A DNA stretch of 64,000 nucleotides from Vampirovibrio sp. (GCA_050916035.1 CP050876.1:410372-474371), one strand, 5' to 3'; shown: positions 4,598 to 48,598, numbered from the stretch's first letter. Numbers and translations are program-made. The notes: generated by a model from the sequence alone, not told the origin.

Positions 4598-5273
4598 AAA
4601 GAGATATTAAATATGTTTGGTACGATATTAAAATCTTCTTTTTGTTTCGTCAGCCCTAATATTTCGAACACTTTTTCGTCAATAACTGCGTCTGCATAAA
4701 TATATTCCGTTCCTTCTTTTATGGTATTGGTCGCATTTCTAAACTTTTTAAGTAAATTTCTTCGTACCCAACTCATGTGATGGCAAACCACAACATCGTA
4801 CATAAATATATAAGGATGTTTAATGTGATTTAAACACCGTGTAGGATCAACTACAATAGGAGCATTGCTTTGGGTACACAATCTACGTTGAGAGGTTAAT
4901 TGTGAGATAAAAGGAATGGCGTAGTTGGCAATTTCTTTTTGTTGATATTGGGGAGTATTAACGTAATTTCTATGAAAACAAAAGGTGGTATCATAATTGT
5001 GTTTTAAGATTTTTTCTTTGGCCCACTGTATTTCTTCCGCGTGATAGAACTCATCTACATCCATCACAAGTAAATAATTACATTTTGCCTTTCGTACGGC
5101 TTGAACGCCTATATTTCTTTTGAAAAGTTCATTATCTATTGATGTTTTTAAAGCATCAGGTTCAAAGAAAATAATTTCATCAATAAGCTTTTTTTCTTTT
5201 AATGAAAGTAGCAAGTCATAAAGACAAGCCTCTGCAGGTTCTCCATGCCAAGAAGTGCTTTGGTAGACGACAT
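4594..5273 (-). pseudogene. C-terminal fragment of a glycosyltransferase-like gene split by the IS element
   Basis: The track ORF 4594..5289 has its apparent 'MSTLP' start codon inside the IS terminal repeat (ATGTCGACA). There is no native start before Met76. The fragment contains the DxD-like 'YLLVMDVDEF'. It is in frame with the 6118..6350 fragment once the IS and one TA are removed. Confidence 0.5.
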
Positions 5274-5289
5274 TAGGTAGTGTCGACAT

Positions 5290-5736
5290 TTACTTAAGCC
5301 ATAAACAAATAGAAGCAAGATGAACAAAAGACAAATAAGCCACATCTAATTTATCGTAACGGGTTGCCATTCGCCTGAAGTTTTTAAGGTCTTTAAACAA
5401 GTTTTCTACCAAGTGGCGAGCCTTGTAAAGGAAGTAATCGACTTGACGAGGAGCCACCGCATTGCTTTTATTAGGGATGACCACTTCAGCCCCCATGAGG
5501 TGAATCGCCTCAAATATTTGTTCTGAAACATAGCCCTTGTCCGCCAAAACCGCCGTGGCTTCAAGCCCTTTTAACAAAGGGATGGCTTGGGTTGAGTCGG
5601 AAACCTGCCCTGCGGTGACGATAAAGCGAACGGGGTTGCCGTGGCTGTCACAAACGGCGTGAAGCTTGCTCGTATAGCCCCCTGACGATCGTCCTAACGC
5701 TTGTTTTCCGGCACTTTTTTTGCCCCTGCTGAACAC
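5290..5736 (-). CDS. IS transposase OrfB (DDE catalytic part, presumably fused to OrfA by -1 frameshift)
   Basis: 148-aa product identical to ORF 48028..48474. It overlaps orfA by 43 nt in the -1 frame, which is the typical IS427-group organisation. Confidence 0.8.
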   Translation of the reverse strand: MFSRGKKSAGKQALGRSSGGYTSKLHAVCDSHGNPVRFIVTAGQVSDSTQAIPLLKGLEATAVLADKGYVSEQIFEAIHLMGAEVVIPNKSNAVAPRQVDYFLYKARHLVENLFKDLKNFRRMATRYDKLDVAYLSFVHLASICLWLK

Positions 5737-6050
5737 TGGTGGGCGCGAATAATCGTCGAATCAATCATAAGCCATTCGGTATCTGCCGATGTGGCAAGGG
5801 TGTTGAAAATCATTTGCCAAATGCCTTGTTTCGCCCAACGAATGAAGCGCTTGTGAACACTGCTCCACTTGCCGTAATAATAGGGAAGCGACCTCCATCT
5901 TCCCCCGTTTCGCCCCATCCATAATACCGCTTCTACAAAAAGACGGTTGTTTTCGGCAGTGCGTCCTCTATGATGCGACTGACCAGGTAGAGCCTCTTTT
6001 ATCTGATTCCATTGGGCTTTAGACAACTCGTATTGAATATAATCGTTCAT
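5694..6050 (-). CDS. IS transposase OrfA (HTH part)
   Basis: 118-aa product 'MNDYIQYELSKAQWNQIKEALPGQSHHRGRTAENNRLFVEAV...' is identical to ORF 47714..48070. It ends at an A7G slippery run (T-run 5715..5721 on the plus strand). Confidence 0.8.
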   Translation of the reverse strand: MNDYIQYELSKAQWNQIKEALPGQSHHRGRTAENNRLFVEAVLWMGRNGGRWRSLPYYYGKWSSVHKRFIRWAKQGIWQMIFNTLATSADTEWLMIDSTIIRAHQCSAGAKKVPENKR

Positions 6051-6117
6051 AATAAATCCCTCAAAACAACTAGATCTTGGATTTATTATATCATTATTTA
6101 TATGTCGACACTACCTA

Positions 6118-6350
6118 ATATAATGGGCAGAAGATCTCACCGATTGCAAAGAGGCTTCTAACAGTTCCTCTCCGTCAAATAAGCTATAGGTAATCCCTAG
6201 TTTAAAGGTCTCTATCTTTTTAGACAAGGAGAAGAGCTTGATTGACTCTCTTGCATTTCTACGTTTTTTTCTACTGAATGAAACGCAATCAAGATATTGT
6301 GATAGGGTTTTCACCCTTTTTCCCGCTTGAATCATAATCTGTTTTAACAT
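6118..6350 (-). pseudogene. N-terminal fragment of the same IS-split glycosyltransferase-like gene
   Basis: The stop codon of track ORF 6111..6350 (CTA 6111..6113 on the plus strand) lies inside the IS terminal repeat. '...ITYSLFDGEELLEASLQSV' resembles a GT2-type N-terminal motif. The reading frame continues into 5275 after 5276..6117 is removed. Confidence 0.45.
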
Positions 6351-20790: not shown

Positions 20791-20983
20791 GAAGAGTCCT
20801 CATCTTTTCTTTAGGCCACCCTTGAAAAGGGTACCGTGTATGATGTAATGCCATACAGACTAGCACAAAAAAGGGCGCCCATTGGTTTTATGCTCAATAT
20901 GATGTACCCGTGTTAAGAAAATCATAATTATTTCGTGTCAACAAAAAACAATCCCTGTTCGACCGTGATGAGGAGTCAAAACC

Positions 20984-21571
20984 ATGGCAGGCTATCCCTA
21001 TAGCAACCCCTATAGCATGAATCCCTATGCGTATAATCCCTACGCCCAGTATGGAATGTCCACGACTTACCCCTATGGGACCTACCCCCAAGTCAATATC
21101 CCTTCGCCTTATTCCCCTTATGGAACAGGCTATTATACTCCAGAGGCCAATCCTGGCTATTATGTGCCCCCCCAACATAACGTCCCCGTACAGCATGATC
21201 CGTGGCCCCCACAAGCCCCTGTGACGCCTCATTATACGTATCCCACGCCAAACACCCCCCCTCCTATGGCCACACCTCCCATGAGGCCTGCTCCTCAGGC
21301 GCACCGCGTCTATTATGCCCCTGCCCCACCAAAAAATGATAACAGTGGCTGGATTTTAGGCGGCCTCAGTGCCTTAGCCCTAACGGCAGGCGCGATTTAT
21401 CTCGGCAAAACAAAGAACATTAAATATCTCACCCCCTTCGCCGACAAAAGCGTCGACGTTTTACAAAAAGGGTGGAAGGGACTACGCAACGGCGCAGAAA
21501 CGGCTTGGCAATGGACGAGTGACCATGCAAAAAATGCGTGGACTTGGATACAAGACCGCTTTAAACCCTAG
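20984..21571 (+). CDS. Tyr/Pro-rich low-complexity membrane protein (hypothetical)
   Basis: GGAG ribosome-binding site 9 nt upstream. The N-terminal 110 aa consist of PY/NPY/YP repeats. One transmembrane helix follows ('WILGGLSALALTAGAIYLG'), then a Trp-rich amphipathic tail. Confidence 0.5.
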   Translation: MAGYPYSNPYSMNPYAYNPYAQYGMSTTYPYGTYPQVNIPSPYSPYGTGYYTPEANPGYYVPPQHNVPVQHDPWPPQAPVTPHYTYPTPNTPPPMATPPMRPAPQAHRVYYAPAPPKNDNSGWILGGLSALALTAGAIYLGKTKNIKYLTPFADKSVDVLQKGWKGLRNGAETAWQWTSDHAKNAWTWIQDRFKP

Positions 21572-21695: not shown

Positions 21696-22127
21696 ATGAA
21701 TCACACCCCCTTTCATACGGATGAACCCACGCTCTTGGTCGCGATGGTCGGACCGCGCGCGGGCTATCTCCAAATCGCGCCTCGTGTGGTGACCAGCGAA
21801 CACGCGGAAGTCCCCCCCTTATTATTTCAAGCCTGCCAAACGTGGGCCAGTTTTCTGCAAACGCAAGCAAGCGTCGCCAAAGTCTACTGGCTACAATGGA
21901 GTGAAGTCGTCACGCATTTGCATTGGCATCTTTACCCTCGCTGGGTAGAAGACCCTCTCAAAGGGGTAGAGGCCTTCAACGCACGTCATGACCTCACCGC
22001 TCAAAGGCCGTGGGACTTACATTGGCAAATGGCTTTATACCAGTGGGCCGAACGCTATAGTGTCACCATTCTTGATCCTGAAGGGGTCCTTAGCGCTCCA
22101 GAGACCTTCGTGCAAGAAGCCCCCTGA
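21696..22127 (+). CDS. HIT-family (histidine triad) hydrolase-like protein
   Basis: 'VVTHLHWHLYPR' matches the HxHxHxx histidine-triad motif. Length is 143 aa. Confidence 0.5.
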   Translation: MNHTPFHTDEPTLLVAMVGPRAGYLQIAPRVVTSEHAEVPPLLFQACQTWASFLQTQASVAKVYWLQWSEVVTHLHWHLYPRWVEDPLKGVEAFNARHDLTAQRPWDLHWQMALYQWAERYSVTILDPEGVLSAPETFVQEAP

Positions 22128-22146
22128 AAAACAGAAAGCCCCACAG

Positions 22147-22599
22147 GTGACCCCTCCCTTTAGATTGAGTCAAGCCCTTCTTCATCAGTGGATGCTACAC
22201 GCCATGCAAGTAGCAGAGCGTTCCCTTCCTTTGGATGTGCCTGTGGGGGCCGTGCTTTTAGATGAAACAGGTCATTTGGTCGGTGAAGGCTGGAATACGC
22301 GTGAAGCCTTACAAAATCCTTTAGGGCATGCTGAATTAAATGTCCTTCAAAACGTTTGTCAACAAAAAGGCCAATGGCGTTTGGCGTCCCACACCTTAAT
22401 TGTCACCCTAGAACCCTGTCCCATGTGTCGCGAAGCCCTTAAACAAGCGCGGGTGGGACAAATTATTTTTGGAGCCTTTGCTAAAAAGAGAGAAGACCCA
22501 AGCCCTCAAATCGCTCGTCCGTCCAAGCCTCCACTCGGAGGGATTTTAGAATCGGAAAATCAGGCACGTTTAGAAGCCTACTTCCAAAGCAAGCGATAA
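22147..22599 (+). CDS. tadA: tRNA-specific adenosine deaminase
   Basis: Deaminase zinc motifs 'HAE' and 'PCPMC' are present ('GHAELNVLQN...LEPCPMCREAL'). The start is uncertain: GTG at 22147 or ATG at 22192. Confidence 0.75.
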   Translation: MTPPFRLSQALLHQWMLHAMQVAERSLPLDVPVGAVLLDETGHLVGEGWNTREALQNPLGHAELNVLQNVCQQKGQWRLASHTLIVTLEPCPMCREALKQARVGQIIFGAFAKKREDPSPQIARPSKPPLGGILESENQARLEAYFQSKR

Positions 22600-47551: not shown

Positions 47552-47713
47552 ATACGTCTGGTGTTTTAAATACGACCCCCCTTTATCCTTCCGTTGTGGG
47601 ATTCCGAATTAATATATCTGCAGGACGCCACATTTTCTCGATATACTAGGTAGTGTCGACATATAAATAATGATATAATAAATCCAAGATCTAGTTGTTT
47701 TGAGGGATTTATT

Positions 47714-48070
47714 ATGAACGATTATATTCAATACGAGTTGTCTAAAGCCCAATGGAATCAGATAAAAGAGGCTCTACCTGGTCAGTCGCATCATAGAGGA
47801 CGCACTGCCGAAAACAACCGTCTTTTTGTAGAAGCAGTATTATGGATGGGGCGAAACGGGGGAAGATGGAGGTCGCTTCCCTATTATTACGGCAAGTGGA
47901 GCAGTGTTCACAAGCGCTTCATTCGTTGGGCGAAACAAGGCATTTGGCAAATGATTTTCAACACCCTTGCCACATCGGCAGATACCGAATGGCTTATGAT
48001 TGATTCGACGATTATTCGCGCCCACCAGTGTTCAGCAGGGGCAAAAAAAGTGCCGGAAAACAAGCGTTAG
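47714..48070 (+). CDS. IS transposase OrfA
   Basis: Identical to the 5694..6050 product. Confidence 0.8.
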   Translation: MNDYIQYELSKAQWNQIKEALPGQSHHRGRTAENNRLFVEAVLWMGRNGGRWRSLPYYYGKWSSVHKRFIRWAKQGIWQMIFNTLATSADTEWLMIDSTIIRAHQCSAGAKKVPENKR

Positions 48071-48474
48071 GACGATCGTCAGGGGGCTATACGAGCAAGC
48101 TTCACGCCGTTTGTGACAGCCACGGCAACCCCGTTCGCTTTATCGTCACCGCAGGGCAGGTTTCCGACTCAACCCAAGCCATCCCTTTGTTAAAAGGGCT
48201 TGAAGCCACGGCGGTTTTGGCGGACAAGGGCTATGTTTCAGAACAAATATTTGAGGCGATTCACCTCATGGGGGCTGAAGTGGTCATCCCTAATAAAAGC
48301 AATGCGGTGGCTCCTCGTCAAGTCGATTACTTCCTTTACAAGGCTCGCCACTTGGTAGAAAACTTGTTTAAAGACCTTAAAAACTTCAGGCGAATGGCAA
48401 CCCGTTACGATAAATTAGATGTGGCTTATTTGTCTTTTGTTCATCTTGCTTCTATTTGTTTATGGCTTAAGTAA
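48028..48474 (+). CDS. IS transposase OrfB (DDE), -1 frame relative to OrfA
   Basis: Identical to the 5290..5736 product. It overlaps the A7G slippery site. Confidence 0.8.
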   Translation: MFSRGKKSAGKQALGRSSGGYTSKLHAVCDSHGNPVRFIVTAGQVSDSTQAIPLLKGLEATAVLADKGYVSEQIFEAIHLMGAEVVIPNKSNAVAPRQVDYFLYKARHLVENLFKDLKNFRRMATRYDKLDVAYLSFVHLASICLWLK

Positions 48475-48598
48475 ATGTCGACACTACCTAAGTTTAACGT
48501 TAAAACATGTAACAATCTATTCAAGCATTTTAAAAAAGTAACCGACCCATTTAAAGACCTTCATTTCCATCACAAACCCTTTCCAGAGGAGCTTCATC

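Follow-up and report, generated by a model that had tools for sequence, protein, structure and literature searches.

A 64-kb stretch of Vampirovibrio sp. DNA, which we analysed whole and call the window, carries on its + strand a gene for a 195-residue Pro/Tyr-rich protein (the P/Y protein). The gene appears to be a true orphan, taxonomically restricted to one species-level lineage of the Vampirovibrionales, and also appears to be very young. We picture its product as a small single-pass inner-membrane protein made of a disordered arm, a transmembrane (TM) helix and a Trp-bearing helix, with the N terminus outside, encoded by a gene that was inserted at its present site and is kept there by selection. 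Judged from the sequence, this composite picture has about an even chance of being right. A preliminary description of the same DNA had already proposed the basic architecture of a low-complexity arm, one TM segment and a basic Trp tail, and composition, hydrophobicity and an AlphaFold (AF2) model all agree with it. What that description missed is that the gene looks like a recent orphan insertion in a conserved operon and that its tail is tape-measure-like. The features discussed below are as follows.

20838..20983, + strand: conserved DNA ahead of the gene, taken as putative 5' leader and promoter (a single substitution over 146 nt relative to contig L001; sister alignment)
20970..20975, + strand: Shine-Dalgarno sequence GAGGAG (read directly from the sequence)
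20984..21571, + strand: coding sequence of the orphan, predicted bitopic membrane protein, 195 aa (open reading frame, selection, in-frame indel)
20894..21304, - strand: antisense open reading frame of 136 aa, rich in Arg/Gly/Ile, which arises as a by-product because the sense strand is CCN/TAY-rich
20984..21163, + strand: Tyr-rich, uncharged, disordered tip, residues 1-60 (composition; AF2 pLDDT below 50)
21164..21349, + strand: Pro-rich disordered stalk, residues 61-122 (composition; AF2 assigns no secondary structure)
21350..21406, + strand: predicted single transmembrane helix WILGGLSALALTAGAIYLG, residues 123-141 (Kyte-Doolittle; AF2)
21407..21568, + strand: predicted cationic amphipathic helix, residues 142-195 (hydrophobic moment; AF2 helix 147-193)
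21473..21562, + strand: three 11-residue Trp units, WKGLRNGAETA / WQWTSDHAKNA / WTWIQDRF, residues 164-193 (spacing; tape-measure matches)

The open reading frame (ORF) at 20984..21571 starts with ATG and encodes 195 residues followed by a stop codon. The Shine-Dalgarno (SD) sequence at 20970-20975 lies 8 nt 5' of this ATG, which bears out the earlier account of a well-initiated gene with a GGAG ribosome-binding site (RBS). The protein is identical to HEQ32_02115, which NCBI annotates as hypothetical and which lies on a contig of 2.04 Mb from a metagenome-assembled genome (MAG) of Vampirovibrio sp.

We compared the gene with its counterpart in a Vampirovibrionales population from Lake Mendota (contigs L001 and L016-L019), so that effectively two lineages are contrasted. 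This population is ~95% identical in DNA to the window across the P/Y-gene region and encodes an ortholog of 196 aa. Relative to L001, the coding sequence differs by 15 substitutions (10 synonymous, 5 non-synonymous) and one in-frame 3-nt indel, which gives a pN/pS of 0.15, an estimate from just 15 substitutions. This value falls inside the range of neighboring genes (0.09-0.28 for coaBC, the HIT-like gene, tadA, the cysK-like gene and a 270-aa gene), and the 124-nt spacer 3' of the gene has accumulated 17 substitutions. The six amino-acid differences, the 1-codon indel included, all fall at residues 52-112: codons 1-51 are identical in both DNA and protein, and the TM helix and tail show zero non-synonymous changes. 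A metagenome variant, L016, carries N169T and T173P in the tail. In the overlap with the antisense ORF, 7 of the 11 substitutions sit on the antisense first codon position, and the same bases give a pN/pS of 0.59-0.66 when read in the antisense frame versus 0.17 in the sense frame. These antisense values mark 20894..21304 as a by-product and not a gene, in line with its earlier dismissal. Overall, the pattern shows purifying selection on the P/Y gene in the + frame, not the antisense frame. The same alignment contains a stretch of ~300 nt (20838-21136, the upstream region plus the first 51 codons) with a single substitution relative to L001, against a regional average of ~5%, and its synonymous sites are frozen as well. 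This stretch may be held by an overlapping constraint at the regulatory or RNA level, or it may be a patch of recent recombination.

Beyond this MAG and the ~95%-identical Lake Mendota population, our searches brought up no second source of the gene. Word-indexed searches of 5.8 billion proteins, run with the whole protein and with its N-terminal 122 aa, returned only its own 4-member 90% cluster, and the C-terminal 90 aa, searched exhaustively by HMMER against 1.84 billion cluster representatives, recovered only the protein itself and one marginal match. JGI metagenome contigs and IMG/VR viral contigs, scanned with the protein, held no relative. Exact look-ups led to four Lake Mendota contigs of the same population as L001. 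No family scored above threshold in Pfam, NCBIfam, PHROG, PADLOC or the PDB, and no PADLOC-DB model matched at E<=1. The preliminary description had allowed for the Pro/Tyr region being a known cell-division or sporulation low-complexity domain; none matches in Pfam, NCBIfam, PHROG or PADLOC. Two candidates were set aside. Matches to complement C4 in the PDB (E 0.019) are compositional noise, and a 558-aa Q/P-rich protein upstream of coaBC in the Gastranaerophilales genome L010, considered as a distant counterpart, has no TM helix and a C-terminal half that looks TPR-like by eye. An Rfam scan of the window identified no RNA families.

The surroundings of the gene suggest how it arose. Its neighbors are yidC, coaBC, the HIT-like gene, tadA and the cysK-like gene, with no phage genes nearby. 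The L001 contig, whose coaBC is 97% identical to that of the window, has the P/Y gene. Five sister genomes with CoaBC identities of ~70% (L002, L003, L006, L007 and L008) lack the P/Y gene. There, only ~120 bp separate coaBC from the divergently oriented HIT-like gene, which is conserved at 146-151 aa and is followed by tadA. The corresponding interval between coaBC and the HIT-like gene in the window spans 905 bp and contains the P/Y gene. From this synteny, the simplest reading is that a recent ancestor acquired an insertion of ~785 bp, which separated the ancestral promoter from the HIT-like gene, the first of the HIT-like/tadA pair. The insertion flanks hold no meaningful direct or inverted repeats. 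Codons 147-151 (KYLTPF) share 13 nt with the beginning of the downstream gene (NHTPF); examined as a trace of duplication, this match is probably due to chance. The GC3 of the gene (0.526) is at the upper edge of that of local genes (0.456 +/- 0.047), and its codon choice is not clearly foreign.

The intergenic regions of four of these sisters (L002, L003, L006 and L008) align to the region upstream of the P/Y gene. The aligned sister sequence includes a AGTCTAGCACAAAAA block and, as an extended -10 box, TGATATAAT. The window counterpart of the sister -10 box (TGnTATAAT, ahead of the HIT-like gene) is TATGAT at 20898-20903, and a consensus scan of the + strand detected no strong sigma-70 site. 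We infer the promoter assignment for 20838..20983 from this alignment and the conservation of the region. No terminator-like site separates the P/Y gene from the next gene, and it is probably co-transcribed with the HIT-like gene and tadA. At such an insertion site, the orphan would inherit the ancestral expression signals.

Several other properties of the region deserve mention. An 11-nt inverted repeat, GAGTCCTCATC / GATGAGGAGTC, occurs at 20794-20804 and 20967-20977, placing a near-identical GATGAGGA(G/C)TC RBS context before both coaBC and the P/Y gene; the sister genomes do not have the 20794-20804 repeat before coaBC. The HIT-like gene (21696-22127, + strand, 143 aa) is conserved beside tadA at every Vampirovibrionales locus examined and carries an HLHWHLYPR motif resembling a HIT triad, with no Pfam or NCBIfam match above threshold. 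The longest tadA ORF (21988-22599, + strand, 203 aa) overlaps this gene by 140 nt. TadA is 154-155 aa in the sisters and 141 aa in IMG, so the real tadA start in the window is probably further downstream. The 126-kb contig L008 (JBEISK010000001.1) is labelled 'Gammaproteobacteria bacterium', and its 70% CoaBC identity and L002-like synteny suggest that it is probably a mis-binned or mislabelled MAG. Finally, an 850-nt perfect inverted repeat occupies 5273-6122 and 47642-48491, each copy with two overlapping ORFs (118 aa and 148 aa) that look like a two-ORF insertion sequence, putatively of the IS5 family. The copies bracket 41.5 kb that include the P/Y gene, and the bracketed segment could be subject to inversion or behave as a composite element.

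The N-terminal arm owes its appearance to composition. Residues 1-122 are 25.4% Pro and 16.4% Tyr with a net charge of 0 and only three K/R, compared to 5.0% Pro and 2.9% Tyr in the window background (9269 residues from 19 other long ORFs). Across all six frames of the window there is no second comparably P/Y-rich stretch and no paralog. The arm is bipartite, with 16 of its 20 Tyr in residues 1-60. This tip contains 16 Y (27% Tyr) and 11 P, no K/R/D, three copies of NPY and one SPYSPY, and the stalk (residues 61-122) contains 20 P in 62 residues, 4 Y, a PPP and 7 PxxP. In a single-sequence AlphaFold model, residues 1-120 are unstructured, with pLDDT mostly below 50. The preliminary description spoke of PY, NPY and YP repeats over about 110 residues. 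The enrichment holds, over 122 residues, but the repeats do not: adjacent PY/YP pairs number 11 against a shuffle mean of 10.2, a count reached by 4475 of 10000 shuffles. We looked for the head-to-tail units of a true tandem-repeat protein in the DNA with Tandem Repeats Finder and found none beyond a 9-bp x 2.1 unit that encodes SPYSPY. The 'PY repeats' are a compositional bias and not a repeat array in the strict sense.

A single hydrophobic segment follows the arm. Residues 123-141 have a 19-residue Kyte-Doolittle mean of 1.57, and the AF2 helix of this segment extends over residues 121-143. Summed over 15 residues, the charge is +1 just before this segment and +3 just after it, and K/R residues make up 3 of the 122 residues N-terminal of the segment versus 10 of the 54 C-terminal of it. 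By the positive-inside rule, this distribution would place the cationic Trp helix on the cytoplasmic face. The corresponding N-out/C-in orientation, with the arm periplasmic and the tail cytoplasmic, is the one that we consider rather probable. An uncharged, unfolded N-tail that is poor in K/R can cross the membrane without a signal peptide, as in E. coli ProW. The P/Y protein has no signal peptide, and export of an N-tail as long as its 122 residues is uncommon.

The tail is equally distinctive. Its 54 residues include 5 Trp and 10 K/R for a net charge of +5, and AF2 models one long helix over residues 147-193 with pLDDT of 71-90. Across these 47 residues, the hydrophobic moment by the Wimley-White scale is 0.31-0.35 for an angle of 98-100 degrees per residue, a value reached by only 6-13 of 5000 shuffles. 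Trp residues are paired 11 residues apart (W164/W175/W186 and W177/W188). At least three Trp pairs at this spacing arise in 67 of 100000 shuffles, although the spacing was chosen post hoc and the effective significance is lower. The 'basic tail with spaced Trp' of the preliminary description can thus be made precise: the net charge is +5 and the spacing is exactly 11. Two of the units, AETAWQWTSDH and AKNAWTWIQDR, are evidently related to each other by sequence.

Such resemblances as this tail shows in databases are weak, and all are to phage tape-measure proteins. In the HMMER search, the single non-self match of the C-terminal 90 aa was a 1491-aa PhageMin_Tail protein (P0002), which carries the PhageMin_Tail domain of tail tape-measure proteins (PF10145, E 7e-27). 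The tail matches P0002 at four successive repeats, for example VWDGIKGAVSSAWSWITDTISSAWKAVVGIF, with an E of 1.4e-4 that is summed over four non-independent repeat matches and hence inflated. A tblastn search with the tail against 50,697 phage genomes gave 24 weak matches (E 3-10). Of these, 22 are annotated, and every one of the 22 lies in a gene for a tape-measure or minor tail protein. The genomes concerned are those of E. coli siphophages, one of which was checked and belongs to the Drexlerviridae, and of one phage each from Streptococcus and Propionibacterium. When two composition-matched shuffles of the tail were run in the same way, their matches were to a tail fibre and a recombinase, with none in a tape-measure gene. 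The tape-measure matches therefore depend on residue order. A tape-measure chain in the PDB (9l9p_B) matches the tail at E 2.4, and a PHROGs tape-measure match is also weak. At the level of motifs, SDAWGWVGDH of phage BEK12A pairs with ETAWQWTSDH of the tail and SDAWNWIKDRI of phage G4 with KNAWTWIQDRF; against the repeat unit of Javan240, the tail is 42% identical over 31 residues.

In Pfam, the 11-residue Trp/Phe repeats of siphophage tape-measure proteins correspond to the 'TMP repeat' (PF05017). Tape-measure proteins are known for 11-residue Trp/Phe markers adjacent to putative membrane-spanning regions (PMC3271669, PMC5099701), and 11-residue repeats in these proteins were described by Mahony et al. 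2016 (PMC5099701). Pattern 1 of Belcaid et al. 2011 needs seven consecutive [FW]-x(10)-[FW] markers (PMC3271669). In the tail, the run comprises only W164, W175 and W186, plus the pair W177/W188, and F152 lies 12 residues before W164. What the protein does have is an 11-residue Trp periodicity in helix 147-193, adjoining the TM helix at 121-143. No PhageMin_Tail or other tape-measure domain was found in it at E<=1-10. We conclude that the tail appears to resemble tape-measure Trp repeats, a resemblance only and not membership. The half of the protein comprising the TM helix and the Trp repeat may descend from a phage tape-measure module, or it may have converged on a similar arrangement of interfacial Trp helices.

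How might such a protein act? With no catalytic domain in its sequence, it presumably must act through binding or physical effects. The TM helix would anchor it in the inner membrane. A Trp every 11 residues, or three helical turns, would put the Trp on one face of the tail helix, and this cationic helix would rest on the cytoplasmic side, its aromatic face set in the interface of the inner leaflet. The charge-poor, unfolded arm would cross into the periplasm as an N-tail, with its sticky Tyr-rich tip kept off the membrane by the Pro-rich stalk. Within the envelope, the arm would then serve to tether or to space, or as an adhesive element.

Other readings of the gene start from the arm. Annotations of the ortholog locus (L016-L019 and L001) conflict: NCBI PGAP calls a protein of 195/196 aa, and IMG calls a 94-aa antisense protein together with a 96-aa protein from Met100. 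On the second model, the N-terminal PY region is untranslated and the true product is the 96 aa from M100, with or without the antisense protein. The IMG gene caller annotates exactly this split on four metagenome contigs, and spurious calls are common among low-complexity ORFs. However, the + frame has a pN/pS of 0.17 over codons 1-107 versus 0.59 in the antisense frame, the indel between the lineages keeps the frame, and a strong SD precedes M1, whereas M100 (21281) is preceded by CCTCCC and no SD. We regard the shorter product as very unlikely. Met100 lacks an RBS, and together with the selection pattern this favors the 195-aa model; the full-length + strand gene appears to be genuine. Granted a translated arm, one could ask whether it is a WW-domain ligand of eukaryotic type that this predatory lineage presents to algae, as its prey or hosts. 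The preliminary description had pointed to WW ligands and host interaction; the latter, like the phase-separating assemblies that it also raised, is speculative. The organism does belong to the Vampirovibrionales, whose cultured member preys on Chlorella (PMC4451040), and the protein has several PxxP motifs and one NPxY. Yet a regex scan of the protein counted zero PPxY, LPxY, PPLP and PPR motifs, and 'PY' pairs are expected by chance at 25% P and 16% Y, so the WW reading is unsupported. There is also no signal peptide or secretion signal, the anchor is a TM helix of inner-membrane type, and the gene is missing from all other sampled Vampirovibrionales. An array of this kind is extremely improbable.

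The remaining readings keep the full-length protein and change its orientation or its origin. In the reverse topology (N-in/C-out), the P/Y arm would be a cytoplasmic, membrane-tethered low-complexity scaffold and the Trp helix would sit on the periplasmic leaflet; Tyr 'stickers' in an uncharged, Pro-spaced chain could then self-associate or condense. A long N-terminal domain is cytoplasmic in most bacterial bitopic proteins without a signal peptide, so this arrangement would be the usual one. Residues 62-132 also match PBP_N (PF17093), the cytoplasmic tail and TM anchor of penicillin-binding proteins, but at 15.1 bits and E 0.025 the match is below the 30-bit gathering cut-off. A Tyr-rich composition free of K/R/D is typical of self-associating low-complexity domains, and residues 1-60 are of just this kind. 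On the other side, the positive-inside rule points the opposite way (10 K/R in the tail versus 3 in the arm), and carrying a +5 tail across the membrane would be unfavorable. We rate this orientation as less probable than the first, but as a serious alternative. The tail raises a different alternative, in which the protein is a domesticated tape-measure fragment (the TM helix plus one Trp-repeat unit) fused to the arm, similar to morons or superinfection-exclusion proteins. From the inner membrane, it would hinder genome injection or the tape-measure proteins of arriving phages. Tape-measure proteins of unrelated siphophages are all that the tail resembles, in four libraries; these resemblances are lost in shuffles, and in those phage proteins, too, the Trp repeats follow hydrophobic helices. 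A recent insertion of one gene whose GC3 is at the top of the local range would fit such an origin, and small inner-membrane proteins such as HK97 gp15 block genome injection, in a manner dependent on the phage tail region (PMC3594210). Against it, the neighbors are housekeeping genes with no phage genes nearby, there is no PADLOC or significant PHROG match, codon usage is not clearly foreign, and the similarity is too weak to establish homology. We consider both the fragment origin and the interference improbable. Bolder still, by analogy, is the idea that a captured TM and Trp module fused to a Pro/Tyr arm spanning the periplasm serves as a chromosomal decoy, which would bind arriving tape-measure proteins or the membrane channel that they form and so block phage injection; we treat this as a long shot. 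The inner-membrane orphan with a periplasmic arm remains our preferred reading.

The P/Y gene is already a well-documented case of a very young orphan gene: its point of insertion can be identified, its promoter is probably borrowed and the purifying selection on it is measurable. It lends itself to research on how genes are born and on small membrane proteins in an under-studied, non-photosynthetic sister group of Cyanobacteria. As a bacterial array of WW ligands, the protein has nothing to offer. Should the tape-measure resemblance reflect descent, it would mean that fragments of phage structural proteins are recycled into host membrane proteins, and the decoy, if true, would be a new type of injection block, based on mimicry by an orphan gene born inside a housekeeping operon.

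Among known systems, siphophage tape-measure proteins are the nearest analogy for the tail. They share with the tail a Trp every 11 residues, the motif W-x-G-[ILV]-[KR]-x-G-x-x-[ST]-A-W-x-W-[IT]-x-D, a second motif, A-W-x-W-I-x-D-R-[IF], and the position of the repeat after a Gly/Ala-rich hydrophobic helix (Streptococcus phage Javan240, Propionibacterium phage G4). However, the P/Y protein has three markers, not seven or more, and 195 aa, not 600-1500. It lacks a PhageMin_Tail or other tape-measure domain and a tail-gene neighborhood, it bears an unrelated P/Y-rich arm, and its similarity does not reach what proof of homology would call for. Superinfection-exclusion and moron proteins (HK97 gp15 of the YebO family; P22 SieA) are likewise small products of lineage-specific single-gene insertions that sit in the inner membrane, with a possible link to tape-measure-mediated DNA entry. 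They have no sequence similarity to the P/Y protein, which is not in a prophage, and the analogy is functional only.

The arm invites other comparisons. Eukaryotic PY-motif membrane adaptors such as NDFIP1/2, LITAF and the phospholipid scramblases also have a Pro/Tyr-rich N-terminus before a membrane anchor, but their defining WW-binding PPxY/LPxY motifs are missing here and there is no homology. Aromatic-rich low-complexity domains, including those of FUS-like proteins and the N-termini of galectin-3 and annexin A11, are similarly uncharged disordered chains with frequent Tyr between P/G/S/N/T spacers, whereas the P/Y protein is bacterial, membrane-tethered and far higher in Pro. TonB differs in its charged EP/KP repeats and folded C-terminal domain, the P/Y arm being uncharged with no folded end domain. 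[quoted passage not shown] What the P/Y protein has in common with both the TonB-type periplasmic region and ChiZ is the basic plan of a Pro-rich-spacer anchor, in which a TM anchor adjoins an extended, proline-rich, unstructured segment.
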